Source: Nostoc punctiforme PCC 73102
GTDB lineage: Bacteria > Cyanobacteriota > Cyanobacteriia > Cyanobacteriales > Nostocaceae
Length of the DNA: 32,000 nt
Reading direction: 5' to 3'
Assembly: GCF_000020025.1 (NCBI RefSeq)
Contig: NC_010630.1
Span: 90,001-122,000, forward strand
A program made the translations under genes and the position numbers. The notes beneath the pieces are model-generated. The model made no database searches and was not told where the DNA came from. It saw nothing but the letters and a program-made list of their open reading frames with translations. How positions within the stretch are numbered: the first letter of the stretch is position 1; each line of letters begins with the position of its first letter. This document shows positions 17,555-32,000 of the stretch, in pieces.

Positions 17555-19064
17555 TTGTATCCCACTCATGGTCAACCAACAGTTAGACCTTGGCGACTGG
17601 CGTTAATCTGTGTGCTGCAATTTATTGAAGATTTGCCAGATCGACAAGCTGCCGAAGCTGTCCGCAGTAGAATTGATTGGAAATATGTTTTGGGGTTGGA
17701 ACTGACTGATTCAGGTTTTGATTTTTCTGTGTTGTGTGAATTTCGCGCCCGATTGATGGTAGGTGGTGCAGAACAACAACTGCTAGACACGTTACTGAGG
17801 CAATTTAGAGAGCGCGGATGGCTCAAAGAAAGAGGAAAACAGCGCACTGACTCCACCCATGTGCTGGCTGCTATCCGTAACTTGAACCGACTCGAAGGGG
17901 TAGGTGAAACTCTACGTGCAGCCCTCAATTCACTAGCTACAGTCGCGCCCGATTGGTTGCGTTCATGGGTACCTTCAGAATGGTACGAGCGTTACGGTCG
18001 GGCTGTAGAAGAATATCGCTTACCCAAGGGCATTGCCGCACGCACCTGAATATGCCGAGATGATTGGCACAGATGGTATGCAGTTACTGATAGCTGTATG
18101 GGCAGAAACTGCCCCAGATTGGCTTGCTCATGTGCCCATCGTCGAAATTCTGCGACAGACTTGGGTACATCAATATTATGTGGAGAATGACCAAGTAAGA
18201 TTGCGGGCTGCCAGTGACTTAGCCCCTTCTGGTAGTCGTTTTGACTCTCCTTATGACATCGATGCTCGCTTTGGTAATAAACGCAGTGTGACTTGGACTG
18301 GGTATAAAGTGCATCTGACCGAAACTTGTGATGAGAACCAAGTCCATTTAATTACTCATGCCATTACCACCCAAGCTCAGGTTTCAGATGTTACACAAAC
18401 TGCATCTATTCACGAGGCATTGGCTGCCAAAGACCTGCTCCCCAGTCAACACATTGTTGATGCTGGCTATGTCGATAGTAATCTTATCGTCACTAGCCGT
18501 AAACAGTATGGAATAGATTTAGTCGGCCCAGTCCGCCCGAATGTTAGTTGGCAAGCTAAAACGCCTGGCGGTTATGATATCAGCCAGTTTACAGTGAGCT
18601 GGAATACAAAACGGGTGACTTGTCCTCAAGGTAAAAAAAGTACCAAAAAGTGGGTTCCGACTCAGGACAAGTGGGGCAATGCAGTGATTAACGTGAGATT
18701 CCCCCGCAAAACTTGCCGACTTTGCAACGCCCGTGCTTTATGCACCCGCTCGAAAACTGAGCCAAGAGAATTGACACTGCGCCCAAAGGCAGAATACCTT
18801 GCATTGCAAACCGTGCGACAACAACAGCTTTCCACGGATTGGAAAAAACTCTATGACGCAAGAGCAGGAGTTGAAGGAACGTTGTCTCAAGGAATTGGCA
18901 GCTTGGGGCTGCGACAAGCTCGCTACATTGGTTTGGTTAAAGTTCGGCTCCAGCACTTGCTGACTGCCGTGGCTCTTAATGTGGTGCGGATGGTTGCTTG
19001 GTTACATGGCCGAACCCATGCGAAAACCAGAATTTCTCGATTTGCTGCTTTAGCTCCAGTGTGA
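17555..19064 (+). pseudogene. IS1182-family-like DDE transposase, 5'-truncated and frameshifted
   Basis: Two consecutive ORFs (17555-18049 and 18033-19064) together resemble one transposase. Matches include LQFIEDLPDRQAAEAVRSRIDWKYVLGLELTDSGFDFSVLCEFRARL (DUF772-type N-domain), RTDSTHV, the cysteine cluster CRLCNARALC, and C-terminal ARAGVEGTLSQGIGSLGLRQARYIGLVKVRLQHLLTAVALNVVRM. The frame changes around ACC-T-GAA at ~18045-18050, with no slippery run. Roughly 40-50 N-terminal residues are missing, and in-frame stops lie just upstream of 17555. Confidence 0.8.
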
Positions 19065-19112: not shown

Positions 19113-19184
19113 CTTCTCCATGTAATACACAGATAACCCTCTGCTACCTAATGAGCTAAAATAACGGTGTAATACATGGAGAAG
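19113..19184. promoter_or_regulatory. 18-bp imperfect inverted repeat (17/18) spaced 36 bp, ending 5 nt before the ATG of the 165-aa ORF; candidate operator or small hairpin element
   Basis: CTTCTCCATGTAATACAC (19113-19130) and GTGTAATACATGGAGAAG (19167-19184). The same core recurs at 19377, 19406 (reverse complement), 19443 and 20187. Confidence 0.35.
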
Positions 19185-19189
19185 CGGTT

Positions 19190-19687
19190 ATGAAACGTGA
19201 TATCCAGGGGAAGTTTGCCCTGAAAAATGAAGATTATCGTTTAGTTCGCTCGTTAAGACTAACTGATTCCACGTGGGTAGCTTTGGGCATCACATCTGAA
19301 TGCTTGGGTCTTACTAGGGCTGACTATTTAGAGCAGATCATTCGTGAAAAAGCTCTGCCAAGTACGGTTTCTCCAAGTAATACACGGGAGAAAGATTTCC
19401 TTTTTCCATGTATTACAAGGCAAAATACGGATTCACCACCGCGTAATACACGGTTTCAGGAGGAAATAGAAGTACTCCTTGCTGAAATACAAAATCTCAG
19501 TCAAAAGAATGCTGCATTGATGCAACGAACAGCAATTGCTTTCTCCCAAATAGAACTTGAGCTTTTACGCGATCGCATTTTGCTTGATTTGAAATTAGGC
19601 AAGCAAGCCCCTGGATACAAAGCTGTTCAAAAAGCTCTCAATCGTTTCATCGCTGAATTGACTTACCCAAACACAAGCGTTTTTTGA
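19190..19687 (+). CDS. Hypothetical protein with ribbon-helix-helix-like N-terminus
   Basis: 165-aa ATG ORF. The N-terminus, RLVRSLRLTDSTWVALGITSECLGLTRADYLEQII, looks like the RLTxxxWxxLxxxAxxxGxSRAxxLE pattern of small RHH/CopG-like cyanobacterial proteins. A coiled-coil-like middle follows. The central part is built from DNA repeats (NTR peptide repeats), which lowers confidence that the whole ORF is genuine. It contains a HIP1 site. Confidence 0.5.
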   Translation: MKRDIQGKFALKNEDYRLVRSLRLTDSTWVALGITSECLGLTRADYLEQIIREKALPSTVSPSNTREKDFLFPCITRQNTDSPPRNTRFQEEIEVLLAEIQNLSQKNAALMQRTAIAFSQIELELLRDRILLDLKLGKQAPGYKAVQKALNRFIAELTYPNTSVF

Positions 19688-19897
19688 CTTCGCCAACAGC
19701 ATCATCCTCTTAAGTTGGCGTAAAAAAAACCAAAGTATGTAAAGATAAGTAAATACATAAAATGCATCTACCGAGGTTACTAAGACATGGGCGCTCGTTA
19801 AAAAGGGAACTACAGTACAGAACGTGTAAAATTTGAATCTAATCGTTCTGGTCAAACTTTTGTTACATAGTTATAAATTTTCCCGCCCACTTACTTA

Positions 19898-20086
19898 GAG
19901 CAAGAAGGGTCACTCGCTCTACCACAGAGCGAATTTGGTTTGGATGTGATTGCTTATATAGGAGCGTTACGATACCAGGAACATAGAAGTGTTCCCCAAA
20001 TACACACTCACCTTGAATTAAAGGGTATATGTATAAGTCAAAGAACGGTCACGCACCTAATTGACAGATATGACGAATTACTTTCT
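19898..20086 (+). pseudogene. Internal fragment of a zinc-ribbon IS transposase (the part that should follow the 17244-17465 fragment)
   Basis: Plus-strand translation EQEGSLALPQSEFGLDVIAYIGALRYQEHRSVPQIHTHLELKGICISQRTVTHLIDRYDELLS (HTH-like). There is no start codon. Coding sense begins at 19898 and is lost at ~20086, where the TGTGATTTGAATCA block starts. Confidence 0.5.
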
Positions 20087-20205
20087 TGTGATTTGAATCA
20101 TAAAATAAACTTTTAGCTCACAATATGCTTCAGAAAGCATTAACCATTTTATGCTTCAAAAATCGGCGAAAAAGTAGAAGACATGTTCCATGTAATACAC
20201 AGTTA
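20087..20205. repeat. Candidate tns-distal end of the minus-strand Tn7-like element (terminal TGTG plus repeated ATGCTTCA sites)
   Basis: TGTGATTTGAATCA starts at 20087, exactly where the IS transposase fragment loses sense. ATGCTTCA occurs at 20125-20132 and 20151-20158, both in the same orientation. An inverted copy lies next to tnsAB at 27178-27185. Terminus not proven. Confidence 0.4.
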
Positions 20206-20286
20206 AGGGGTTAGATTTGGCAAAGCTGTCATGAAGTACAAACTAAACTGTTTAGTTTAAATATCAAGCATCACCATCTAAAGCCC

Positions 20287-20700
20287 TTAAATAGATACAG
20301 TTAAGATTTTAAACAACCAGTCTTCTAGAGGTACGCCGAATTCTTCTGGAATCTGTTGTTGTATCTTGGTGTATTGAACCTGATTCCAATATGCAGGATT
20401 AAATATACTGTGCGGAACTTCTACATCAACTAATTGTGGATTTTCCATAACACGACACCACATTCTGGCTCGATAATCAATTGTGAGGTTCCCAAAAGGT
20501 AACTCAATCCAATAATGCGGTGACACTTGACCATGCCCAACCCATCGGAACGAACCGTACCAAATTAGATGTTCAATACCCTCATTAAATAAAATAGTAG
20601 AGAGAACTTTGCTATGCCCATCACACTCCGTTGGGGAATTATTCCAAACACCTAATTCTTCACGTAGCTGCTCAATAAAATCATTATTCATTCCAAGCAT
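20287..20700 (-). CDS. Small hypothetical protein, possible transglutaminase-like / papain-fold cysteine peptidase core
   Basis: 137-aa ATG ORF. The spacing TECDGHSKVLSTILFNEGIEHLIWYG...SPHYWIELPFGNLTIDYRA fits the Cys...His(aromatic-x-E)...Asp pattern of transglutaminase-like cores. The assignment is by eye only. Confidence 0.55.
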   Translation of the reverse strand: MLGMNNDFIEQLREELGVWNNSPTECDGHSKVLSTILFNEGIEHLIWYGSFRWVGHGQVSPHYWIELPFGNLTIDYRARMWCRVMENPQLVDVEVPHSIFNPAYWNQVQYTKIQQQIPEEFGVPLEDWLFKILTVSI

Positions 20701-20812
20701 ATTTATTCTCCAATAGTACTTTCAATTTGCGAACTGTATTGATTGTCATATCAGCTTGTGTTGCTGTTTGACGCAATAATAATTTCTCATCAAGTGCTGC
20801 AATTACTCCTTG

Positions 20813-21781
20813 TTAAGCACGTTCTTCTTCAATTTCTTCAATTAACTGCTCAATCCAACTAGGTTTACCTGCTAGAATATCTACTTCAAACTCTGATAAC
20901 TGCTTTTTTTTCATCCGCCGCAAATCTCGCAATGCAGCAGTCGCATCTTCCGGGTTGTCAAATTTGTAATATTCAGTCAAACTCCCAATAGAGCAATTGT
21001 AGTCAGCATATCTATATTTAAAATATTTCTCTACATTCCCTCGATGCGACCAGTGTCCTAAAACTTTGATTGAAACATGAGAAAAATGTTTGACCAAATC
21101 AGTTTGAACTTCAGCTACGCGTGCTTGTATTTCCCGCCTAGTCACACCAATTTTATAAAATGTTTCTTTATCAGTATCAATTTGAAGGTAATACAGAGTA
21201 TTCGATAAAATTTTCTTTAATTCGGCGCGATATATTTGCAGATCCCAAAGACATTCATGAAAATTTGATGCATCATCAAGATAAGCAACTTGAACTTTTT
21301 TCTCTAACTGCTGCAACTTCTCCCACAATATTGATTCTTGCACTTGGTTGAACAGCATTAACGATAATGCACCAACAGGTATCTTACCTAGCTTGGTAAA
21401 CTGGTATTCTCCATAGAGACGGTATTCATTGTACTCTAACAATTTTTCTTTAATAAAAATTGAGTTAATTTTACTCTCATAAATACCTTTGTTCTTCCAT
21501 CCGTATCGATTCCAAAGGGTCTTGATCTGTTGGAGTTCTTTACCTGTTAGACATATATTGAAGTTATTGTATAAAGGTAAAGTAGGAATTTCACGTTCAC
21601 TGCGATTAGCTACTTCTCTGCAAGTAAAGTTAGTGTGTGCGAAGTGGTGTTCTTTACGATTTCCCTTTTTCGCCGTCAACTCACCACCACAGTAGGGACA
21701 CTTTAACTGAGTTCTCCCTCGTAGAACATCTTCAATCGGTACTAAGATCAAATCTAGGTCAACACCATACCTGAGCCACAT
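20813..21781 (-). CDS. CoiA-like zinc-ribbon N-domain fused to a T5orf172 / GIY-YIG-superfamily nuclease-like C-domain
   Basis: 322-aa ATG ORF. N-terminus LKCPYCGGELTAKKGNRKEHHFAHTNFTC matches the CoiA-type CPxC...K.G..R..HFAH motif. C-terminus FYKIGVTRREIQARVAEVQ...GNVEKYFKYRYADYNCSIGSLTEYYKF matches the T5orf172 pattern (YKIGxT, R, E..h, xEwF). Confidence 0.8.
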   Translation of the reverse strand: MWLRYGVDLDLILVPIEDVLRGRTQLKCPYCGGELTAKKGNRKEHHFAHTNFTCREVANRSEREIPTLPLYNNFNICLTGKELQQIKTLWNRYGWKNKGIYESKINSIFIKEKLLEYNEYRLYGEYQFTKLGKIPVGALSLMLFNQVQESILWEKLQQLEKKVQVAYLDDASNFHECLWDLQIYRAELKKILSNTLYYLQIDTDKETFYKIGVTRREIQARVAEVQTDLVKHFSHVSIKVLGHWSHRGNVEKYFKYRYADYNCSIGSLTEYYKFDNPEDATAALRDLRRMKKKQLSEFEVDILAGKPSWIEQLIEEIEEERA

Positions 21782-22093
21782 TTGGGAATACCTTTTATTT
21801 GATACACCAGGAAAGGTAGGCTTGAAAAGCGCGTAATGATATTTTACTGTATCAAAAAAAGCTGCTGTAAAATAAATAATTCTTAAGGAATTTATCTTAA
21901 AAAGAAATACGTTTAAATTCCCAAATTAACATTGTCCAGTCATAACCATCAGAATCAACTACACTAATGTACCATCTAAAAGAGGCTGTATACCTCTTTA
22001 ATGCCATTGACTTAACTAACATATTCTCTTCATCAGTAGCGTCGGAGCTATGACCTGCTTGAATTAAATCACCAACTCTAGTAATTTCATATA

Positions 22094-22372
22094 TTAATCA
22101 AGTGTTGAATAATCAGAAAGTTCTGTTGTTTCTAACTCACTTAAAAAGCCAGTTAATGCAAATGGACATTTACAACTAAGCTCTTTTTCTAAAAAATCAG
22201 CATTTAAGTGATATTCAAAACACACAGTATCAAAAATATCCTCAGTAGTTAATTCTAGATTTTCATCTAATTCCACTATTCGTGCTTCTATTAAGTAAAT
22301 TAGCTCTTTACTAGAGAAGTAAGTTTTGATTGTAGAAGTAATTATTAGATGATTTATTTTAGTAACTATCAT
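22094..22372 (-). CDS. Hypothetical acidic 92-aa protein, no recognisable domain
   Basis: ATG ORF in the same orientation and 31 nt downstream of the 138-aa ORF. Very AT-rich. No motif recognised. Confidence 0.45.
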   Translation of the reverse strand: MIVTKINHLIITSTIKTYFSSKELIYLIEARIVELDENLELTTEDIFDTVCFEYHLNADFLEKELSCKCPFALTGFLSELETTELSDYSTLD

Positions 22373-22403
22373 TTTAACTCTCCGATGATTTTAAACATAA
22401 TCT

Positions 22404-22820
22404 TCAAATTGGTAAATGCTGTTGTAAGATTGGGTGCAAAGAAGCAGCAATTGCCTCAAACTTATCACCATCTGGATAGGGACGAAGAATTTCCTCACCG
22501 TCTTCGTTCAACCACTCTTGTCGTATTGGAGTGTACTCAAGCGATAGAATTGCAGTTCTCCACCAGCCAGATAATGCTAAATGTTCCCCAGACCAAAATA
22601 GCCGGAAATCAACCTTCTTATTTCGATAAACTTCACTAATAGGATTAGAATAAGGACGGTTTTTAGGATCAAAAGTCTCAGTAAAATAGCCTTGAAAATC
22701 AATTACTAAAAAATCTTTTTTAATTTCTGCTGTTAATTTAAAACGAGAGTGTAGATAATGAGCAGATAAAATTTTAGCGGCTGCTAATTCAAATTCTATA
22801 GGTAAAGTAGATAAACTCAT
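22404..22820 (-). CDS. Hypothetical 138-aa protein occupying the position normally held by tniQ/tnsD; no Cys, no recognisable domain
   Basis: ATG ORF with AAGGA 12 nt upstream, 90 nt downstream of tnsC on the same strand. It has no zinc-finger cysteines or TniQ N-terminal motif. Confidence 0.6.
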   Translation of the reverse strand: MSLSTLPIEFELAAAKILSAHYLHSRFKLTAEIKKDFLVIDFQGYFTETFDPKNRPYSNPISEVYRNKKVDFRLFWSGEHLALSGWWRTAILSLEYTPIRQEWLNEDGEEILRPYPDGDKFEAIAASLHPILQQHLPI

Positions 22821-22910
22821 TAATTAATAATTTCCTTGAATACCGATGCGAACATTATTGAAAAATTGATACCCTTGATAAAAACTGTTTACTACTGAAT
22901 TTTTTGATGT

Positions 22911-24383
22911 TCACTCAAGTCCAACAGTGTCTCGTTTGGGTTTGCGTTGCCCAACACGTTGGGAAGACTTTTTAGGCATTTTCTGTTTAGTTGCAGCTTC
23001 ATCATCAATTGTCTTCTGTTCTATTATGGGACTGACAGTAATATTTGTTTCTAGTGGTGTCTCACTAATTGAAGAATCAGTTTGTTTTGTCTTCTTGCGA
23101 GTTTGTTTCTTCTTGGGGACTGGCTCTATAGAAGTTTTGCCTGGTGTAGTAGAAGGCGTTTCATCTATCGTAGAACTGACGGGCTTTTTACGAGTCCGTT
23201 TCGCTTGAGATGGTGGTTTGTCAGATTTCGGAGGCGATGCTACCACATCTGCTGCGCCCTTTGATAAATCCACCGCAGTTTTTGGTACAGATGTAGAACC
23301 CATTCCCATCTGTAGCAAATGCCACAAATGTTCACGGCGACTTTCCATATAAGAGAGTTTTTGTTCTCCCTCAGTGGTATCCAATGCCATACGTTCACAT
23401 TGGGCTAGTGTTAGGGTATGTTCATGCAATCTTTCTAAACTAAGAGTGTCGTGGCCATCATGTGCTACCGCTGCCACAGCCCGTATAAGCCAGTCTTTGA
23501 GTACCCCAACACAACCAATGCAACGTTCATAGAAATAAAGCCAATGCTGCATTAGCTCTCTTACATCAACATTCATCGGTACTTGCATCAGGAGTGCCAA
23601 TAATGCGGCTTGAAAATCCTGACGGTCAAGTTCATTTTGATACAGATAACGCGGAAAATGGATATCTAGTCCCCGCCGGGATGCTTGACCACTTAAATTG
23701 CGGAAATTTAGCAGTTCGTAAGTCCCAATGAGAATGTGTAGCACACCCGTAACGTTGGTCATAGACTTAATCCAGTCCAACTGGTCTAAAAGCTTACCAG
23801 CACTTGCACCAGTCCCAATCTTCATTAAGTGCTGTGCTTCGTCCAAAATCACCGCCCGCACTCCGCGTTTGGTCATCGCTTCTTCTAATGCGTGGCGCAG
23901 TTCGGGAGAATCATTAAACTGCGCTGTTTTAGTCCGGGAGCGTCCTTTCTTCTCCCAAGTCTGCTCCGCATCAATATCTATCAGCATCCGCCGCTCATAG
24001 AATGGTTCTCCCAAAAGCTTTAGCGCAGTGCGGTAATAATCTGCGCGATTAAACACCCCACCGTCAGATGGTCGTGTTTCTAACAGCAATAACGGCATCA
24101 GGGGCTGACTGCCGTTACGATAGCTTAAGGAATTGGATACACCTGGTAACTGTTCGGGTACATTCTCATTTAACCGTTTAGCAATCTGCCGAATCATCGT
24201 TGTTTTACCCACACCGCTTGGCCCATAAACCAACACATGAGCAAATCCGGCGGGTTCTCGAATCGCACGCATCAACAACATATCTACCCGTGCTAACTGG
24301 GGATGTAAAACTGCATACTCCTTAAACTGAGTTAGTTTGAGGTGCATTTGGTCGTTTTGATTAAGGCTCTCCAAATTGTCCAT
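22911..24383 (-). CDS. tnsC: TnsC/TniB-like AAA+ transposition ATPase with a ~125-aa K/P/S/T-rich disordered insert before a conserved C-terminal tail
   Basis: 490 aa. Walker A: YGPSGVGKTT (~24198-24226). Walker B: AVILDEAQHL. Also GVLHILIGTYELLN. It is collinear with the 379-aa plus-strand paralog. The start overlaps the tnsAB stop by 1 nt (TAATG). C-terminus: ...SSQRVGQRKPKRDTVGLE. Confidence 0.9.
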   Translation of the reverse strand: MDNLESLNQNDQMHLKLTQFKEYAVLHPQLARVDMLLMRAIREPAGFAHVLVYGPSGVGKTTMIRQIAKRLNENVPEQLPGVSNSLSYRNGSQPLMPLLLLETRPSDGGVFNRADYYRTALKLLGEPFYERRMLIDIDAEQTWEKKGRSRTKTAQFNDSPELRHALEEAMTKRGVRAVILDEAQHLMKIGTGASAGKLLDQLDWIKSMTNVTGVLHILIGTYELLNFRNLSGQASRRGLDIHFPRYLYQNELDRQDFQAALLALLMQVPMNVDVRELMQHWLYFYERCIGCVGVLKDWLIRAVAAVAHDGHDTLSLERLHEHTLTLAQCERMALDTTEGEQKLSYMESRREHLWHLLQMGMGSTSVPKTAVDLSKGAADVVASPPKSDKPPSQAKRTRKKPVSSTIDETPSTTPGKTSIEPVPKKKQTRKKTKQTDSSISETPLETNITVSPIIEQKTIDDEAATKQKMPKKSSQRVGQRKPKRDTVGLE

Positions 24384-27100
24384 TAACGGTATTCCCCTAG
24401 TATCGGCAGTCGTGTGAGATCCAACAGTTCAATGTTGTTTTGCAGTGCTGGCAATTGTTCGTCATCTTGACTGTGTGCTTCTATCTCCGGCTCAAGAGTG
24501 CTGACTGGGGGAAACTGGGGTACACCTTCCTTATTGAGTGTTAAATTCTCCAGTACCCCAACAGCTTCCAAATCCCGTAATCGTTGCATGAGTAAGATTT
24601 CATGTTCTTGCACCGCCGCGATGAAGTCTGCAAGGCGTTTGGCAGAGATATTTGTACTCACAGCATTACGCTTATCTTGCTGTCTGATTTCTTGGGCAGC
24701 TAATAGCACTTCTTTCTCCGTGCGTCCGGCAAAGGTGCTGTAATACTGGGAGATACATTTGACCCATCTTCCCTCTAAGTACGCATAAGCTACACCCATA
24801 TCAAAAGGGTCATAGCGTACACTGACTTTGGTCTTTTCGACAACCGGATTGCGGAAAGCATCGTTCCAGTAATAAAGATAATTGACTTTAATTCCCTGTC
24901 CCGGCTGAACTTTAGCGTTGCCTTTGGGTGTACTAGGGCGTGTTGCCATGAGAAAGTCTTCGTTGTATGCAATACGTCGGTGTTCCCTCTCCCCTGTGGC
25001 AGCCATTGCGTCAGTATAAACTTGTAATGGTGTCTCACCCAAGGAATCATGTACGCTTGTGTCATAAATGGTGTATGCCCACTCACTCAGGTAGGTATGT
25101 AAAGAAGCTAATGTCCAAACGGCAAGTTGTTTGGGGTCAACAGAAGAAGTGAGTTGACGCGGTTGTTTACTGGCTTGGGTGTTGCCCAGTAAGTTAAAGA
25201 TAAATTCAGTATTAGTTGTTCCGAATAATCGCTCAACTACTGAGCCAAAACGAGGTTTTGCACCAGGACGAGTCTTTTTGATGCAGTGGTAGCGTGCTAA
25301 TAAGGTATCAAAGTAAACGCTATGAAATTCCTTACCGCCATCTACAACTACAGATTGGGGAAAACGACCAAAACGCTGGACGCACAACCGTAGTGCCATC
25401 ATGCAAGACCTGTAACTGGGTGGGTCAAAGGTGAGATAAACTGCTAAGATGCGTCGGGAGTAGGCATCAATCAGTAATGTCAGCCAAGGTCGTCCTAAGT
25501 TCCGACCAGTTACTTGGGAGCGTAATTCGATATCGAGTTGGGTGTGGTCAAGATGACAGATAGCAAAAGGTCTGTCTCCATGCCGGGGTGTAGTTCTAGC
25601 TAGTTCTAAGACAATCGGTTCTGTTGCGTATGCGGCTTTTGCTCCCTGACGTTTTAAAGTCTGCTCATGGATTGGACGCTTTTTTAGCCGAGTATAAAAT
25701 GTGCGCTGACTCAGTGGAGGGATGTTGGCTGTACAGCAGGCTCTTGTATATGCCCGATAAACGGAAGCGGCTGGAGCTTGCCTTGGTGTCTCGAAGTGTT
25801 CTGTAATAAATTTATCTAGTAAAACGCTGGTATCTGTTGGTGCTTTGGATAGGCGATTTCCTCTATTATTTGTACGTGGGAGCAAACCAACATAACCGCA
25901 ACCAAAAGTGGCTTCCGCTTCCCGAAACTGTTTTACCCATCGAGATAAGGTGCTTTGAGGTATGTCCTTCCCTATATCTGTGTGATGCTGGAAATATGCT
26001 TGTACTAAATGAAATCTGCGATTGGCTCTTTGTAGATCCGCAGGCGAGGCGGCATCCATCAATTCACGCACTCCCTCATTGATGGTTGTTTGTTTTTCTG
26101 AGGTGAGAATATTGATAGTGCTACTGTCGAATAATTGCAGAAAAAATGCTGTGGGCAATTGCATTGGTTGCCCGACTGCGGGTAGCAGTGTGGTTGTAGT
26201 CTCGCCCAAGTTAACTAAAGTCCAAAGTTGTGAGTCCCAGACTAATAAGGTATTAGGCAAGAGTGTTGTGGGTGAGGTGATTTTTCGATGATCCCCAGTT
26301 GTCCCTATGGCTAAATATGTATGAGCAGTATGAGTTTGCTCATCTGCCCATAGCTGAACTCGCCAATGTTCCACTAGGGGAACTGCATACAAGTCCACGT
26401 AGAGTTGCTCTGTGGCAATCATGGCGTAAATATCGTTAGCACGCACTCCGGGAATGGTTGCAAGTGTGGCGGCTATAGTTATTCCTGGACTGGCTTTAAC
26501 TGAAGACAGTATTTGTTCTGTAATGGAAAGGGGGACATTGGCGGTGAACCTAAAGTAGTCTTCTAAAAACATTAGGTTCTGGGTGAATATGGGATTTAGT
26601 TCGGTATCGGTGCGAACATGATATTTGAGTCCATAAGATTCGGCGTAAGCTTCTCCTGGTGGGCAATGCCAATGACCAGTTTCAGTTTTTTGGTAGCGTG
26701 AAGGGTATTTTTGGGCTAGTCGTTTTAATTCGGTTTCGGTTTTCCATTCTTCCCAAGCTGCACCTGTCGTCCGCAGTACGAAGAAGTCTGGGGTATGGTA
26801 ATGACCTATATTTCGTCCGTTTTGGTTTTGGTACTGAATTTTAAATGGAGGTGGTTGGTCGTAGAACTCTAACACCTGTGGGTCGTGTTCCATTTGGTAA
26901 ATCGCCCATAGTTCTACTGTGTGGCTCTCAAATTGAATGGTTTGACCCATTTTGCGGCTAGGGTAAACTCCACTGACGTTCTTAGCGCGTCCTTGTACTC
27001 TGCGAGAAGGTGGGGCAGCGCGAATTGCGGCGATTATTAAGAGTATTTGTGCCGTTAGTTGCTGTTGCTTACACCAATGGTCAAATTCATCGTCTGTCAT
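24383..27100 (-). CDS. tnsAB: TnsA-TnsB fusion transposase (N-terminal TnsA-type endonuclease domain + HTH + DDE/RNase-H core + Mu-transposase-type C-domain)
   Basis: 905 aa. TnsA-like catalytic pattern: FESHTVE...YHTPDFFVL...EEWK (E...D...ExK). DDE core: HLDHTQLD, LLIDAYSRRILAVYL, GSVVERLFGTTNTEF. C-domain: VNYLYYWN...VRYDPFDMGVAYAY. Acidic/hydrophobic C-terminal tail: LDLTRLPILGEYR. Confidence 0.9.
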   Translation of the reverse strand: MTDDEFDHWCKQQQLTAQILLIIAAIRAAPPSRRVQGRAKNVSGVYPSRKMGQTIQFESHTVELWAIYQMEHDPQVLEFYDQPPPFKIQYQNQNGRNIGHYHTPDFFVLRTTGAAWEEWKTETELKRLAQKYPSRYQKTETGHWHCPPGEAYAESYGLKYHVRTDTELNPIFTQNLMFLEDYFRFTANVPLSITEQILSSVKASPGITIAATLATIPGVRANDIYAMIATEQLYVDLYAVPLVEHWRVQLWADEQTHTAHTYLAIGTTGDHRKITSPTTLLPNTLLVWDSQLWTLVNLGETTTTLLPAVGQPMQLPTAFFLQLFDSSTINILTSEKQTTINEGVRELMDAASPADLQRANRRFHLVQAYFQHHTDIGKDIPQSTLSRWVKQFREAEATFGCGYVGLLPRTNNRGNRLSKAPTDTSVLLDKFITEHFETPRQAPAASVYRAYTRACCTANIPPLSQRTFYTRLKKRPIHEQTLKRQGAKAAYATEPIVLELARTTPRHGDRPFAICHLDHTQLDIELRSQVTGRNLGRPWLTLLIDAYSRRILAVYLTFDPPSYRSCMMALRLCVQRFGRFPQSVVVDGGKEFHSVYFDTLLARYHCIKKTRPGAKPRFGSVVERLFGTTNTEFIFNLLGNTQASKQPRQLTSSVDPKQLAVWTLASLHTYLSEWAYTIYDTSVHDSLGETPLQVYTDAMAATGEREHRRIAYNEDFLMATRPSTPKGNAKVQPGQGIKVNYLYYWNDAFRNPVVEKTKVSVRYDPFDMGVAYAYLEGRWVKCISQYYSTFAGRTEKEVLLAAQEIRQQDKRNAVSTNISAKRLADFIAAVQEHEILLMQRLRDLEAVGVLENLTLNKEGVPQFPPVSTLEPEIEAHSQDDEQLPALQNNIELLDLTRLPILGEYR

Positions 27101-27546
27101 GAGAATGCTTCTCTTTGCCAGGAGGCGGTTTTAGGCTTTCAGTACGCAATACCAAACTACAGAGGCATGGTTTTAAGTGAAGCATATCTTGGAATTTTGA
27201 ACCATATTTTGAATTGAAAGTTTATAAGTGGGCAATTTTTTCAAAGATTTTTTGTGCAAGTTTCATTCAATTGTGTTTTTTCAACTCATTTTTTAATTAT
27301 GCTTCAGAATTTTAACTCTCTCTCATGATTTGATTCAAAGTTTTATGTTGGGATTGGTGAGAAAGTCCGAAATTGCGTTAACTCTTGTCACTTAAAGGAT
27401 ATTGTGGCCGTTTTTAAACCATAAAGTGGCCGCAGTCATCTGAACTGGTAAGTATAAATATTTATATCAATAAAAGACTGTTTAACTGGCGAAAGCCTAG
27501 ATTTGTGGTAAGAGCTTGTTGCGGCTTTAAAAGCTTGGGGGCCAAT
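27101..27546. repeat. Divergent spacer holding the tnsAB-proximal transposon end(s): dense AT-rich short repeats
   Basis: TGAAGCAT (27178-27185, inverted) and ATGCTTCA (27299-27306). ATTTTGAA x2 (27193, 27206). TTTTTTCAA(A/C)..ATTTTTT x2 (27236, 27274). TGATTTGATTCA (27326-27337) matches TGATTTGAATCA at 20089 at 11/12 (13/15 over the extended block TGATTTGA.TCA.A). TGTGGCCG / GTGGCCGC lie at 27403 and 27425, and TGGTAAG x2 at 27446 and 27505. Confidence 0.45.
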
Positions 27547-30156
27547 ATGTTGAGCGACCAAGAGTTTAATGATTGGTGTCGCGGCGTAAATTTACCACAA
27601 GAGGCTAGGCAATTAATTTCCCAAATCCGTGCCTCTGAACCAATTCGGCGAGTCAAAAGCAGTGGTATAAATGTCCGGGGCGACTACGCCAGTCGCAAAA
27701 TGGGAAAAACTATTCAATTTGAGTCCCATAAAATTGAATTGCCAGGTGTAGAGGAGTACGAAGAAGACGCAGATGTACTCGAATACTACGACCAAGCATA
27801 TCAAATTACTCTAGAATTCCCCTCAAGCAGTGGGGAAATAATCAAAGCTTCGCATATACCAGACTTTTTCGTAATTCGGAAGCGGAGTGCAGGTTTTGAA
27901 GAGTGGAAACCAGAATCAAGATTAGAAAAATTAGCAGCTAAACAATCACAACGTTATATGCGTTCAGAAGATGGGCAGTGGTTAAACCTGCCAGCAGTTG
28001 CTTATGCAGAAAAATTAGGACTGTATTACCGAATTCGGTTAGATACAGAAATTGATTGGATTAAATACAGAAATCGACTATTTCTCAAAGCCTATACTAC
28101 TGAAGATTACCAAATTGACCCAGAAATAGCTGAAAATTTGGTGAAGTTAATTAGCTTAAATCCGGGCATAAGTTATTGGGAAATGATTCATACTCAACAG
28201 AGCAATCCTGATGACATAAATGCTTTAATAGCTACAAAAAAAATTTACATTAATTTGAGTGCCGCACCCTTAGCAGAGCCAGAAAAAGTACAGCTTTTCC
28301 GTGACCAAGAAATCGCGGTAGCTTATGTACAAATGATAAAATCGCAACCGAATAATGGAACGATTCTGAATATTTTAGATGTTAAACCCAATCAACTGGA
28401 ACCTAAAACTCATAATCAAGTAAAAATGTCTCCAAAAGCAATGGAGCGTTTTTTGAGAGCTAGTCCTGAAGACTTGGCAGAAGCTAACCGAAGATATGAA
28501 GTAATTGAACCTTATCTTAATGACAGTTATAGAGATAAAGAAACTGTTCCACAACGTACTATTCGCAGATGGAAGGCTAAGTTTATAGCAGCACAAAAGG
28601 CGTACAAATGTGGTTATATTGGGCTGCTAAATAACTCTAATGCTAGAGGCAATCGCTTACCCAGAATTTCTCAATCGTCTCAAGATTTCATTGACAAAAT
28701 AATTGAAGAATATTATGAAACTTTTCAACAAAGAAGCAAACTAGCTGTTTATGGAATTCTAGCAAGAGAATGGGAGAAAGCAGGTCTAACAGATAAGCTG
28801 CCTAGCTACGCTACATTTTGTTCTAGAATTCAACATCGTTCTGGTTATAGGCAAACAAAAAAACGTAAGGGAAACAGAGCAGCTTATCAACAATCTTTAT
28901 TGTATTGGGAGTTGAAATTAACCACACCATGTCATGGCGACCGTCCATTTGAGATAGCACACATTGACCATACGCAACTGGATATTGAGTTAGTATGCTC
29001 CCGAACAGGTTATCTTCTTGGTAGACCTTGGGCAACTCTGTTAATCGATGCTTACAGCCGACGTATTCTCGCAGTTTACCTAACTTTTGACGAGCCAAGC
29101 TACCGTAGTTGCATGATGGTATTAAGAATCTGCGTACAGCGATTTGAGAAATTACCAGAGACAATAGTTGTTGACGGTGGGACAGAATTTAGTAGTACAT
29201 ACTTTGAGACCTTGTTAGCGGCTTTTGAATGTACCAAAAAGCAGCGACCAGCTGCGAAAGCCAGATTTGGTTCAATTATTGAACGTATTTTTGGAACTAC
29301 AAATACAGAGTTTTTTTATAATCTTAGAGGCAACACTCAAATTACTAAGAATGTCCGCCAAGTCACGAAATCAAATAATCCCAAAAATCAAGCTGTTTGG
29401 ACACTAGATCAACTCTACGAAAACTTTTGTTCATATTGTTACGAATTCTATGATTGCAGAGAACATCCAACATTAGGACAAAGCCCACGTCAAACTTTTA
29501 TGTCAGGGCTAAATTCAAGTGGTTATCGCCCTCAGAAACAGATTATTTATGATGATAATTTTAAGATTTTTACCTTACCTTCTACACCTAAAGGAACTGC
29601 AAAAGTTCAACCAAGTAGAGGCGTGAAAATTAATTATCTCTACTATTGGTCAATTGATGATTCGTTCATAAGACCAGAAATTGAAGGAACTAATGTACCT
29701 ATTCGTTACGACCCTTTTGATATGGGGACTGCTTATGCTTACGTTAAGGGACGTTGGATACGCTGTATTTCTGAACATTACAAATCCTTCCAAAATCGTT
29801 CCGAAAAAGAAGTGAACATAGCCAGCACACAATTACGTCGAAAAAGGCAGAAACACGCTCAAAGAATTACTCTATCTGCCCAAGAAAAAGCTACATATTT
29901 AGAAGGAACTGAAGCCCAAGAAACTTTGTTATTACAACGCTTACATGATTTAGCACAACAAGATATTTGGGTTTTAATTGAAAAAAGCTCAGTTATTGAA
30001 AGTAAATTAAGTAAACACAATTATTCAGCTAATGTTCAAGATGTAGATAAAAATATTTTGGCAGGTTCAGAAAGCATTAAAAAGCCAAAATCATCAGCAA
30101 AAAAATTAATAGATTTAACCAAAATAGAAGCTTACAATACAGAGGAGCTATGGTAA
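27547..30156 (+). CDS. tnsAB: TnsA-TnsB fusion transposase (paralog of 24383-27100)
   Basis: The ORF track starts at GTG 27505. I prefer ATG 27547 because MLSDQEFNDWCRG aligns with MTDDEFDHWCKQ of the paralog. TnsA pattern: FESHKIE...HIPDFFVI...EEWK. DDE core: HIDHTQLD, LLIDAYSRRILAVYL, GSIIERIFGTTNTEF. C-domain: INYLYYWS...IRYDPFDMGTAYAY. Confidence 0.9.
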   Translation: MLSDQEFNDWCRGVNLPQEARQLISQIRASEPIRRVKSSGINVRGDYASRKMGKTIQFESHKIELPGVEEYEEDADVLEYYDQAYQITLEFPSSSGEIIKASHIPDFFVIRKRSAGFEEWKPESRLEKLAAKQSQRYMRSEDGQWLNLPAVAYAEKLGLYYRIRLDTEIDWIKYRNRLFLKAYTTEDYQIDPEIAENLVKLISLNPGISYWEMIHTQQSNPDDINALIATKKIYINLSAAPLAEPEKVQLFRDQEIAVAYVQMIKSQPNNGTILNILDVKPNQLEPKTHNQVKMSPKAMERFLRASPEDLAEANRRYEVIEPYLNDSYRDKETVPQRTIRRWKAKFIAAQKAYKCGYIGLLNNSNARGNRLPRISQSSQDFIDKIIEEYYETFQQRSKLAVYGILAREWEKAGLTDKLPSYATFCSRIQHRSGYRQTKKRKGNRAAYQQSLLYWELKLTTPCHGDRPFEIAHIDHTQLDIELVCSRTGYLLGRPWATLLIDAYSRRILAVYLTFDEPSYRSCMMVLRICVQRFEKLPETIVVDGGTEFSSTYFETLLAAFECTKKQRPAAKARFGSIIERIFGTTNTEFFYNLRGNTQITKNVRQVTKSNNPKNQAVWTLDQLYENFCSYCYEFYDCREHPTLGQSPRQTFMSGLNSSGYRPQKQIIYDDNFKIFTLPSTPKGTAKVQPSRGVKINYLYYWSIDDSFIRPEIEGTNVPIRYDPFDMGTAYAYVKGRWIRCISEHYKSFQNRSEKEVNIASTQLRRKRQKHAQRITLSAQEKATYLEGTEAQETLLLQRLHDLAQQDIWVLIEKSSVIESKLSKHNYSANVQDVDKNILAGSESIKKPKSSAKKLIDLTKIEAYNTEELW

Positions 30157-31289
30157 AAATTCAGTCGCACTCTTTTCCAGAAGAACTTCTCTTACAGCCG
30201 AACGAAATTAAAACTGATTATTTCAAAAGTATCACTATTCCACATCAAAGGCTCAAACAAGCCTTAGATACTTTATTAATTAATATTCTGGAGCCAGCTG
30301 ACACTTTAGTATTTTTAGTTTTTGGTGTGACTGGTGTAGGAAAAACAACCTTACGCTTGCGTCTGGAAAATCTGCTAAATTACGAATTTCTCCCCTCATT
30401 ACGCCAAAATCCTGGTCAAATTGCTGTTGCTGGTATTGAAGCTATTCCAACAGAACAAGGAAAGTTTAGCTATAAAGATTATTACACTCGCGCCCTAGAA
30501 TCCCTTCAGGAAGTTTTGATTGAATACAAAATTGATTATGAAATTCCTCACGGTGAGGTAAAGGATTTGGGGTTGCTAAATCGGGCTTACCGCCAAGATT
30601 CGCCCGCATTACGCCGAGCAATGGAAAAAGCATTTCGTTATCGTCAGGTAAAAGCTTTTACTGTAGACGAGGCACAGCATTTATTTATGATGGCAGGCGG
30701 ACACCAGATGTTACAGCAAATGAACTGGATTAAGTCTATTGCTAATCTTACTGGTACAGTACATATTTTATTTGGAACTTATGAACTGCTTAACTGTCCT
30801 ACCTTGAATGGGCAAATAGGGCGGCGTAGCGAAGATATTCACCTGTTACCTTACCAAGCTGATAACCCAGAAGATATTGCTGAATTTATTAGAGTAATTA
30901 GAACTTTTCAACGCCACATTCCGCTTGTACAAGAACCAAAATTAGAACAACACTATGAGTATCTTTTTTCTGGCTCAGTTGGTTGTGTGGGGCTATTGAA
31001 GAATTGGTTAACTCGTTCTTTGAGAGTTGCCTATTCTGAAGAAGCTCGGACTCTTAATAGCAAACATCTTAAATTAGGTGCTTTTTCTGCATCTCGTATC
31101 AACAAAATTAAGGAAGAAGCACAACAGGGATTTAAACGCTTTCAAGAAGAATCCAGTTTTTTTGAGCGGCAATATTCAACAGAACATGGAATAAAAATGC
31201 CAGCCAAAAATTCCCTACTCAAAAAAGGTCGTGTTGGACAAAGAAAACCTAAAAGAGATGATGTAGGGGTAAATTCAGATGATGACTAA
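30150..31289 (+). CDS. tnsC: TnsC/TniB-like AAA+ transposition ATPase
   Basis: 379 aa. Walker A: FGVTGVGKTT. Walker B: AFTVDEAQHLF. Also GTVHILFGTYELLN. C-terminal tail: GRVGQRKPKRDDVGVNSDDD. The ATG overlaps the tnsAB stop (ATGGTAA). Confidence 0.9.
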   Translation: MVKIQSHSFPEELLLQPNEIKTDYFKSITIPHQRLKQALDTLLINILEPADTLVFLVFGVTGVGKTTLRLRLENLLNYEFLPSLRQNPGQIAVAGIEAIPTEQGKFSYKDYYTRALESLQEVLIEYKIDYEIPHGEVKDLGLLNRAYRQDSPALRRAMEKAFRYRQVKAFTVDEAQHLFMMAGGHQMLQQMNWIKSIANLTGTVHILFGTYELLNCPTLNGQIGRRSEDIHLLPYQADNPEDIAEFIRVIRTFQRHIPLVQEPKLEQHYEYLFSGSVGCVGLLKNWLTRSLRVAYSEEARTLNSKHLKLGAFSASRINKIKEEAQQGFKRFQEESSFFERQYSTEHGIKMPAKNSLLKKGRVGQRKPKRDDVGVNSDDD

Positions 31290-32000
31290 CATGGCGGTTA
31301 ACGATGAATTGTGGCTCAAAGACCCAGAATTTACTCCCAGTCCTAGCCGGTTGTTTCATCTGGAACCGATTGGACTTGGTACTTGTTATGTTGAAAGTCT
31401 GACTAGCTATGTTGCTCGTCTAGCCGCAGCTCATAGCGTATTGCCTGGAACTTTATTGGCTAGAGAGATAAAACCAATAGTTGGGCATAACCATACTACC
31501 AATCCCTTGAATTCTAAAAGTATCGTAAGTTTGTATGGACAAGCTTCTGTAAAAGCTTTAAACGGAACACAAATTGGAGCTAAACAACTGGTTTTTGCTC
31601 TAGAAATATTGACAAAACGTACTGACTTACAGTTTTTGACAATGCTACCTTGGGCAAAAGTCTTCCCAGTTTTGGGATTGCTCAAGCATTCTCATGCTTG
31701 GTGTCCTTATTGCTATCAAGACTGGTTAAATAATCAACAAGTCATTTATTCACCTCTGCTGTGGGCTTTGAAACCAGCTAACATTTGTCCCATCCATTAT
31801 CGATTTTTAGAATCAAAATGTCCTCACTGTGACCTTGAATTTTTACACCTGTGGCATAACTCACGACCTGGATTTTGTCTGAAATGTGGTGGTTGGTTGG
31901 GGATGAACTATGAAGTATCTTTGCCAGATAAGAGATTGTTCGAGGAGATACCCAATTTACAGCAAGAGATTTGGATAGTTAAGACTTTAGGAGATTTAAT
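31282..32000 (+). CDS. tniQ: TniQ/TnsD-family target-selection protein, 5' part only (open to window end)
   Basis: Translated by hand: MTNMAVNDELWLKDPEFTPSPSRLFHLEPIGLGTCYVESLTSYVARLAAAHSVLPGTLLAREI...WCPYCYQDW...CPIHYRFLESKCPHCDLEF...FCLKCGGWLG. There is no stop through 31998. It has a TniQ-type N-terminus and CxxC/CPxH/CxxC zinc-binding clusters. The ATG overlaps the tnsC stop (ATGACTAA). It is absent from the ORF track because it has no stop in the window. Confidence 0.85.
   Translation, partial: MTNMAVNDELWLKDPEFTPSPSRLFHLEPIGLGTCYVESLTSYVARLAAAHSVLPGTLLAREIKPIVGHNHTTNPLNSKSIVSLYGQASVKALNGTQIGAKQLVFALEILTKRTDLQFLTMLPWAKVFPVLGLLKHSHAWCPYCYQDWLNNQQVIYSPLLWALKPANICPIHYRFLESKCPHCDLEFLHLWHNSRPGFCLKCGGWLGMNYEVSLPDKRLFEEIPNLQQEIWIVKTLGDL

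Follow-up and report, generated by a model that had tools for sequence, protein, structure and literature searches.

A stretch of 32,000 nucleotides of Nostoc punctiforme PCC 73102 (NC_010630.1, positions 90,001 to 122,000 of the forward strand; hereafter the window, with position 1 as its first letter) carries two divergent Tn7-like transposon modules, here termed A and B, and what had looked like a paradox of competing attachment sites dissolves here, as one transposon is nested in the end of the other. A is inserted in the transposase gene of an insertion sequence (IS), and B was inserted after A, in the A right end and 48 bp from the A terminus. This gives a three-level nest IS::A::B in which each insertion has its own 5-bp target duplication, TTTCT for A and ACTCT for B. 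Since B-family insertions recur 46-48 bp inside Tn7-type termini in a fixed orientation, since B encodes a full-length TnsD homologue, and since relatives of the same clade follow a rule of a recognised motif at 40-50 bp, a targeted "end hunting" of Tn7-like termini by B is likely, as judged from sequence comparison. The combined reading, i.e. the nest together with a targeted insertion of B into the A end mediated by its TniQ protein (TniQ_B), is regarded as probable.

Both modules encode a fusion of TnsA and TnsB, on the minus strand in A and on the plus strand in B. The genes start at 27100 and 27547, respectively, which leaves 446 bp between the two ATG codons. This distance and the divergent gene order (tnsC and tnsAB of A on the minus strand; tnsAB, tnsC and tniQ of B on the plus strand) had been given in a preliminary description made from the sequence alone, and the coordinates of the open reading frames (ORFs) and the Pfam matches agree with it. 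The same holds for its by-eye identities, as BLASTP likewise gives ~45% for the N-terminus and ~70% for the catalytic core of the two TnsAB proteins. With overall identities of 43% over 850 aa for TnsAB and 33% for TnsC, A and B are paralogs and not a recent duplication, as had been proposed. A contrast in GC content, previously put at ~50% versus ~33% from single sampled lines, is real but smaller, with 45.7% for tnsC plus tnsAB of A and 38.0% for B, while the A cargo and left part have 34.4%. The short AT-rich spacer of that description does have a low GC content (35.2%), but it is no spacer between two complete ends: the 446 bp consist of 285 bp of the A end, which is split by B, and 161 bp of the B end.

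The left boundary of A is placed at 20087, where homology with four intact plasmid copies begins exactly and beyond which the flanks are unrelated. Window positions 20087-27385 match these copies, which reside on plasmids of Trichormus variabilis ATCC 29413 (two), Nostoc sp. NIES-3756 and Nostoc sp. MS1, with ~90% nucleotide identity over the matched stretches and 69% of the query covered, and the genes flanking the four copies are unrelated to each other. The intact copies begin with TGTGATTTGAATCAT… and finish with …ATGATTCAAAGGACA or a close variant; their 5-bp duplications are clear in two cases (CTTGC, GTCGG) and were read at variant termini in the other two (AGAAG, TATGC). Their right ends run 48-49 bp beyond …GCGTTAACTCT, with TTCTCGATTTATGGTTCAAAATTTTTCTCATATTATGATTCAAAGGACA followed by the duplication, exactly where the window has the B terminus, which identifies the A right end as interrupted by B. 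Accordingly, the window holds only the inner 285 bp of the right, tnsAB-proximal end of A (27101..27385, minus strand), separated by B from the terminal 48 bp, and the left copy of the ACTCT duplication of B lies within it (27381-27385). The adjoining right, tnsAB-proximal end of B (27386..27546, plus strand) starts with the terminus TGTCACTTAAAGGATATTGTGGCCG and contains two direct ATAWWGTGGCCG sites.

The far junction was read from Logan contig L001 (contigs and loci are designated by L numbers throughout), which is identical to the window across 4,550 bases and continues past B. Here, the sequence proceeds in the order …AAGTGACA, ACTCT, TCTCGATTTATGATTCAAAATTTTTCCCACATTATGATTCAAAGCACA, TTTCT and TTATGG…, and the TCTCGATTTATGATTCAAAATTTTTCCCACATTATGATTCAAAGCACA that follows the second ACTCT is the missing terminal 48 nt of A. 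Joining the window up to 20086 to L001 after the second TTTCT restores one continuous transposase ORF (…HLIDRYDELLS/LWLKDHKRL…, the slash marking the joint), of which the 5' part lies at 19877..20086 on the plus strand of the window. A thus has the termini TGTGATTTGAATCAT…CAAAGCACA with TTTCT on both sides (left copy at 20082-20086, second copy past the A terminus in L001), and it extends over 20087-27385 plus 48 bp past B outside the window, ~7.35 kb in total. Hence, the 5-bp target duplications that had been suggested as a check were found for both elements, and the far end of B, likewise sought, could be read at its junction (~32950), albeit outside the window. The earlier statement that each element sits where the attachment site of the other should be is not borne out: A lacks an attachment site, as it has no TniQ and its relatives occupy unrelated sites with different 5-bp duplications, while B lies inside an A end with ACTCT on both sides. 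Likewise, searches of the window found no tRNA genes, Rfam families or CRISPR-like arrays, in line with the earlier remark that the spacer contains neither a tRNA nor an attachment gene, and a tRNA, RNA or CRISPR array in the spacer was therefore discarded as target.

The left end of A (20087..20165, plus strand) comprises the terminus TGTGATTTGAATCAT… and repeated TTTGAATCAT/ATGCTTCARA transposase-site motifs; in the A end that holds B, the two outermost transposase-binding sites occupy positions 6-15 and 30-39, and B is inserted after position 48. An inverted repeat at 20105-20135/27195-27225 within the A ends was rejected as the A termini, since it reflects internal transposase-site homology and the true termini lie at 20087 and 48 bp past B. 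The tnsAB gene of A (24383..27100, minus strand) encodes a 905-aa fusion of a TnsA endonuclease and a TnsB DDE transposase (Pfam PF08722, PF00665, PF09299) with a TnsA_N match (PF08722) of E=7e-11 besides rve and Mu-transpos_C, and the protein is 92.5% identical to a T. variabilis plasmid copy. Its tnsC (22911..24383, minus strand) encodes an AAA+ regulator of 490 aa (Pfam AAA_22/TniB), which aligns with the TnsC structure 8fcu_Q of the PDB over residues 16-386 (E=6.6e-69). Compared with the 379-aa TnsC of B, it carries a C-terminal extension of ~110 aa, the extra length lying after residue ~345. No TniQ was found in five copies of the A-type element, i.e. the window copy and the four intact ones.

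The passenger region of A (20287..22820, minus strand, GC 34.4%) holds four ORFs of 137 aa (20287-20700), 322 aa (20813-21781), 92 aa (22094-22372) and 138 aa (22404-22820), all on the minus strand. The 138-aa ORF, directly downstream of tnsC, is kept in all A copies, with 85.5% identity to that of T. variabilis, and has no Pfam match; it may be regarded as a candidate for an accessory or targeting function in an element without TniQ. The other passenger ORFs vary from copy to copy. The 322-aa protein, with a CoiA-like N-terminal zinc-ribbon (CoiA_N) and a GIY-YIG/T5orf172 nuclease domain according to Pfam, is absent from the T. variabilis copies, which have two other ORFs instead.

The genes of B are arranged as tnsAB (27547..30156, 869 aa from ATG, with the ORF opening at GTG 27505), tnsC (30150..31289, 379 aa, Pfam AAA_22/TniB) and tniQ/tnsD, all on the plus strand. 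TnsAB_B matches rve and Mu-transpos_C in Pfam, and its N-terminus aligns with the TnsA domain of A, while the precomputed PF08722 match is weak. The tniQ gene (31279..32000) is cut by the window end, and the full gene on contig L002 encodes 528 aa; by register with this contig, tniQ_B ends at ~32865 and B at ~32950. TniQ_B matches the Pfam family TniQ (PF06527, E=1.4e-15) and the solved TnsD 8v32_J (E=1.1e-79) over residues 9-321 and 412-512, including the C-terminal region. It is a full-length TnsD homologue and appears to be a selector that reads a DNA sequence.

B is cargo-free: with 5,565 bp, its three tns genes and two ends of ~85-160 bp fill the whole length. Several B-carrying Logan contigs begin exactly at 27386 with TGTCACTTAAAGGATATTGTGGCCG and show zero mismatches to the window, and B contigs end in a perfect 25-nt inverted repeat, …CGGCCACAATATCCTTTAAGTGACA. 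Among the sequencing runs read, the exact TnsC_B protein was found just on contigs of 5.4-6.3 kb, from nine runs, and in several samples the B-carrying contigs terminate precisely at TGTCAC…GTGACA. Such assembly breaks are expected of a sequence that occurs in several contexts per genome, and B is apparently multicopy. Because assemblies break at the elements, a look-up of B neighbours by exact protein yielded contigs of at most 6.8 kb; L001 still gave the far junction. TniQ proteins 63-75% identical to TniQ_B are also located on contigs of ~5.5 kb, and a scan of genome contigs with TniQ_B gave five loci, mostly on short contigs. B is a member of a family of minimal Tn7 relatives that resemble insertion sequences. 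There is no room for cas genes or a CRISPR array in B, no cas domain was found in A and no array in the window.

For the question of targeting, B-type ends were gathered from genome, metagenome and plasmid collections. In alignment A1, B in L036, with 97% identity in TnsAB, and a B-like element with 68% in L033 are inserted in the same aligned column as in the window, and their left flanks are two diverged A-family right ends. The insertions in the window and in L036 are separate events, since B is nearly identical in both while the flanks are greatly diverged. In L049, an Aulosira plasmid, and in the metagenome contig L039, a miniature B element (mini-B) is adjoined by a 5-nt duplication and then by 48 nt of an A-type terminus. 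Overall, an A-type terminus occurs 46-48 nt past the duplication in L001, L049 and L039. Other end families are affected as well: a B-type insertion in L023 lies 47 nt inside a left end of an A' type, whose sequence is that of the left terminus of a mini-element in L036, and mini-Bs lie 47-48 nt from Tn5469-type termini (both flanks of L040; L051), a B2-type terminus (L049) and another type (both flanks of L042), with a further terminus type in L033. Altogether, ten flanks showed, by inspection, a Tn7-type terminus 47-48 nt beyond the 5-nt duplication. A position weight matrix built from these ten flanks, for which the 99th percentile of shuffled sequences is 8 bits, adds flank L033L (18.9 bits at position 51, terminus at 46 nt), while the decayed L052b scores weakly (6.3 bits at position 53). 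The four full-length insertions whose orientation can be read (window/L001, L023, L033, L036) all have the tniQ-side end of B pointing toward the terminus. The arrangement recurs independently (L036, L049, L039, L033). A as a dead fragment or relic truncated by B, an outcome that had been considered before, was rejected because all its ORFs are intact and both its termini and the TTTCT duplication are present.

Several further observations concern these collections. "X-type" flanks are those in which B-type copies are central in a palindromic tnsAB-proximal end (L019, L024), and these do not follow the 48-bp rule. In L019 (10300-10450, Nostoc sp. C057) and L024 (1-108 and 5674-5818, Nostoc sp. 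TH1S01), the B-type copies are flanked by near-palindromic …ACGAAGTTATAAGTAT… and …ATACTTATAACTTCGT…, beyond which lie AAAATGGACA repeats belonging to another TnsAB element; mini-Bs contain a related GCTGAAATACTTAT stretch as well. Elements of a D type (TniQ 35% identical; L028-L030) carry cargo and lie outside A-type ends. In L036, a cyclic-oligonucleotide-based anti-phage signalling system (CBASS)-type operon with a DncV-like nucleotidyltransferase, E1/E2, JAB and a SAVED effector (9483-14034) directly follows a B deletion derivative with a tnsC-tniQ fusion of 317 aa; the flank of B on the CBASS side differs from the expected A terminus, which suggests a rearrangement.

How such positions could be selected may be derived from relatives of B. 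In the Peters-lab convention, the right end is the one that lies upstream of the tns genes, and the side facing the attachment site differs among Tn7-like families (PMC11406308); reading the recognised side from end names alone was discarded, as these are ambiguous without this convention. The earlier premise that the tnsAB-proximal end faces the attachment site does not apply to this TnsAB clade, in which the recognised sequence lies beyond the tnsAB-distal ("left") end (PMC11406308; PMC11837452). McCAST, a member of the clade, inserts so that its left end adjoins the target (PMC9881144), and relatives targeting tRNA genes and CRISPR arrays share a conserved motif located 40-50 bp outside the left end (PMC11837452). 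In the case of B, this interval is taken up by the A terminal inverted repeat (…ATTATGATTCAAAGCACA). We infer from this a role for TniQ_B and the bases it would recognise: TnsD_B would bind the terminus of a resident Tn5541- or Tn5469-type end, TnsC_B would assemble inward from the bound terminus, and TnsAB_B would integrate just inside the two outermost transposase-binding sites, with the B left end toward the terminus. Head-to-head tnsAB genes would result whenever the target is a tnsAB-proximal end, since the B left end then points outward. Cross-immunity between A and B is not expected, as their ends and their TnsAB and TnsC proteins are too different, and B can ride A onto plasmids because the composite retains both A termini. 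A tRNA T-arm-like target, for which the terminal GATTCAAAG of A was considered, was set aside, as the other target termini have no such sequence.

Beyond this locus, it is thought slightly more probable than its opposite that B represents a family of dedicated "transposon-end hunters", whose TnsD would have been retuned from tRNA or CRISPR-repeat targets to a terminal inverted repeat common to the Tn5541 and Tn5469 types and their TnsAB-type relatives. Such a family would parasitise Tn7-like transposons: it would insert with constant orientation 47-48 bp inside either of their termini, escape their immunity, ride onto plasmids and build the nested miniatures of Nostocales genomes.

A number of findings weigh against a targeted insertion. 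The inference is based on about ten natural insertions, and around half of the B-family flanks examined have no terminus at that distance (L019, L024, L026, the left flank of L036, L038, L041, L050), while in two flanks a terminus is present at another distance (27 nt from a D-type terminus in L031, 31 nt from another type in L038). That the flank named above is the one read by TnsD_B would follow only by analogy with relatives whose TnsD is just ~35-37% identical. The reconstructed 265-nt A right end is uninterrupted on ~26 plasmids, so that none of the ~26 A-type right ends found on sequenced plasmids is occupied, although B is present on just one of those plasmid sets. Moreover, mini-Bs of 190-215 bp lie exactly central in double-terminus structures of ~100 bp with flanking 5-nt sequences that do not match (three loci: L040, 1310-1610; L042, 1810-2130; L049, 1445-1760, with two termini from different families). 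As the 5-nt flanks on the two sides differ, these central mini-Bs are not simple insertions and may have arisen by recombination between copies or by use of a neighbouring foreign terminus. Finally, Tn5469, the closest named relative of B, is regarded as untargeted (PMC9881144, PMC11406308).

This last point also speaks for a chance insertion of an untargeted B, in which copies in transposon ends would merely persist because they are harmless. Tn5469 was discovered as a spontaneous gene-inactivating insertion (PMC9881144; PMC11406308), a Tn5469-type copy in L048 disrupts a transposase coding region and not an end, and the many flanks without a terminus fit as well. Survivorship would, however, scatter insertions over non-essential DNA and not place them within about ±1 bp around 48 bp in at least four end families and in one orientation, and TniQ_B possesses the TnsD C-terminal DNA-binding region that is missing from the 272-aa TniQ of the Tn5469-type element; chance is hence considered quite improbable. 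Alternatively, ends might be targeted without any reading of DNA by TniQ, either through recruitment of TnsC_B/TnsAB_B by a resident end-bound transposase or through weak recognition of related terminal sites by TnsAB_B. In favour of this, the insertion point in every target end is immediately internal to the two outermost transposase-binding sites, at a depth of about two site lengths, and the targets share just a generic terminal architecture, TTATG…AAGTCACA, resembling the terminus of B itself. In Tn7, on the other hand, the contact between TnsB and TnsC at the ends leads to immunity and not to attraction, which argues against recruitment by a bound transposase. Furthermore, miniatures and solitary ends are among the targets (L036, L040, L049), where the cognate transposase need not be present, and distance and orientation fit the TnsD rule of relatives (PMC11837452). 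This explanation is therefore judged unlikely.

The preliminary description, by which each element occupies the attachment position of the other, would correspond to independent homing of both elements to overlapping attachment sites or a hotspot, and would imply an unusual orientation rule or a lost attachment gene. While the divergent tnsAB genes only 446 bp apart, with no gene between them, invited such a view, A has neither TniQ nor a conserved flank, the spacer is fully explained by the A end and the B end, and B is bracketed by its own duplication within the A end. The intact A copies and L001 refute it, so that it retains hardly any credibility.

With regard to known systems, the TnsAB fusion and the AAA+ TnsC expected of Tn7-like elements are present in both A and B, as are TGT…ACA termini, binding repeats and 5-bp duplications, while TniQ/TnsD is found in B alone. 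Tn5541 (Schaefer & Kahn 1998) is, like Tn5469, a simple member of the cyanobacterial TnsAB-fusion clade and is described as having TnsAB, a TnsC with C-terminal extension and no TniQ, and as residing on plasmids (Hsieh & Peters 2022, PMC9881144). By this published description A matches it, likewise combining a TnsAB fusion, an extended TnsC and the absence of TniQ with close relatives on Nostocales plasmids, and the lack of TniQ is thus the known condition of Tn5541. In contrast to Tn5541, described as cargo-free and plasmid-only, A of the window carries ~2.8 kb of passenger ORFs, and the T. variabilis copies carry other ORFs. Compared with an element of tnsAB and tnsC only on a Tolypothrix PCC 7712 plasmid, taken as proxy for Tn5541, TnsAB of A is 70.7% and TnsC 71.3% identical. 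Gene-less relatives of A occur as well: a mini-A of 536 bp with both termini and the duplication ATCAG is located at 4114-4649 of L028 (Tolypothrix sp. PCC 7712 plasmid unnamed5), 61 bp outside the terminus of a cargo-carrying D-type TnsAB element, and A-type right-end matches of 190-265 bp lacking annotated genes on ~20 Nostocales plasmids are probably miniatures, too.

Tn5469 (Kahn & Schaefer 1995), a minimal element of Fremyella/Tolypothrix, is described as cargo-free with one TniQ and is thought to be untargeted (PMC9881144). B shares with it the gene order tnsAB-tnsC-tniQ, the lack of cargo, the 5-bp duplication and an apparently multicopy, IS-like behaviour. The closest named-type relative of B is a 4.9-kb Tn5469-type element on a Tolypothrix plasmid with ORFs of 909, 375 and 272 aa (TnsAB 53.5%, TnsC 51.8% identical). 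These ORF sizes of the L048 element match what we take to be the sizes in the published Tn5469. Compared with this type, B differs in several respects: its TniQ comprises 528 aa with a TnsD-type C-terminal region versus 272 aa, of which the N-terminal 208 aa alone align (40%), and its ends differ (TGTCACTTAAAGG… as opposed to TGTCACTGTAAGC…). Moreover, B has a preference in position, unlike Tn5469, which is considered untargeted, and Tn5469-type ends are even among the B targets (L040, L051). B (5,565 bp vs ~4.9 kb) is, by these sequence comparisons, to be placed in a sister family of Tn5469 rather than in Tn5469 itself. In L048 (1-6914, Tolypothrix sp. PCC 7712 plasmid unnamed3), the Tn5469-type element stands head-to-head with another transposase-ATPase module, the transposase gene of which it interrupts, and beyond its tniQ-side terminus the terminal 21 nt occur a second time.

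Similar to B, the minimal Tn7-like family targeting CRISPR arrays (Chacon Machado & Peters 2025, PMC11837452) belongs to the same clade, has the architecture tnsAB-tnsC-tnsD, is multicopy with degraded and miniature copies, and inserts in a fixed orientation with its motif at a constant distance of 40-50 bp outside the left end. Its TnsD proteins, however, are 50-90% identical to AfTnsD, with which TniQ_B shares just 36.6% over 77% of its length; they have no C-terminal helix-turn-helix and lead to insertion in CRISPR spacers, whereas TniQ_B keeps its C-terminal region, the window contains no array, and the terminus of another transposon occupies the motif position of B. Type I-B2/I-D CRISPR-associated transposons (PmcCAST, McCAST) use a tRNA-targeting TnsD, and TniQ_B aligns with 8v32_J over the TniQ core and the C-terminal region, though with an insert of ~90 aa (residues 322-411) relative to it. 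Different from these systems, B has no cas genes, CRISPR array or second TniQ, and no tRNA gene was found near B-family copies in 13 related loci. In the literature consulted, no Tn7-like element targeting the ends of other Tn7-like elements was found described, the nearest precedent being the Tn5053/Tn402 "res hunters" (Minakhina et al. 1999, as cited in PMC11406308). As far as that citing account goes, they resemble B in being Tn7 relatives with a single TniQ that insert beside a functional site of a transposon family common on plasmids, and thereby gain a safe site and a ride. By the same account, their target is the resolvase-occupied res site of Tn3-family elements and not the terminal inverted repeat of Tn7-like elements, and phylum and transposase architecture are unlike those of B.

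The surroundings of the nest deserve brief mention. Upstream of it, at 5854-16817 on the minus strand, a hybrid nonribosomal peptide synthetase (NRPS) and a polyketide synthase (PKS) are encoded, and the transposons lie at the edge of a secondary-metabolite cluster. The NRPS comprises 1801 aa with two adenylation/AMP-binding stretches, two peptidyl carrier protein domains and one condensation domain, the PKS 1853 aa with the domain order KS-AT-DH-KR-ACP (ketosynthase, acyltransferase, dehydratase, ketoreductase, acyl carrier protein). An IS with DUF772 and DDE_Tnp_1_6 domains, divided between two frames, is located at 17555-19064 on the plus strand. In addition, a 17-nt motif, TTCTCCATGTAATACAC, is present in four copies (window 19113-19184, 19368-19425 and 20184-20200); pairs of it form two hairpin-like inverted repeats just left of A, one copy lies within the A left end, and the A copy of Nostoc sp. 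MS1 has a similar sequence at the equivalent place.

Known attachment sites of the Tn7 family are glmS, tRNA genes, comM, res sites, CRISPR repeats, telomeres and guide-RNA targets. A selector reading the terminus of another Tn7-like element would, if true, add a new target class for known machinery. Likewise, B would provide a natural example of one Tn7-like element exploiting another, and the view of minimal cyanobacterial elements of the Tn5469 type as moving without targeting would have to be revised. The proposal also supplies a putative recognition sequence of 20-25 bp with defined offset and orientation, which may be useful for orientation control and for the cross-immunity of co-resident elements. 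For annotation, where two tnsAB genes face each other across a few hundred bp, nesting in an end should be the first interpretation. What remains of interest at this locus is that nesting of the B type is recurrent, together with the evidence suggesting that this nesting is targeted.

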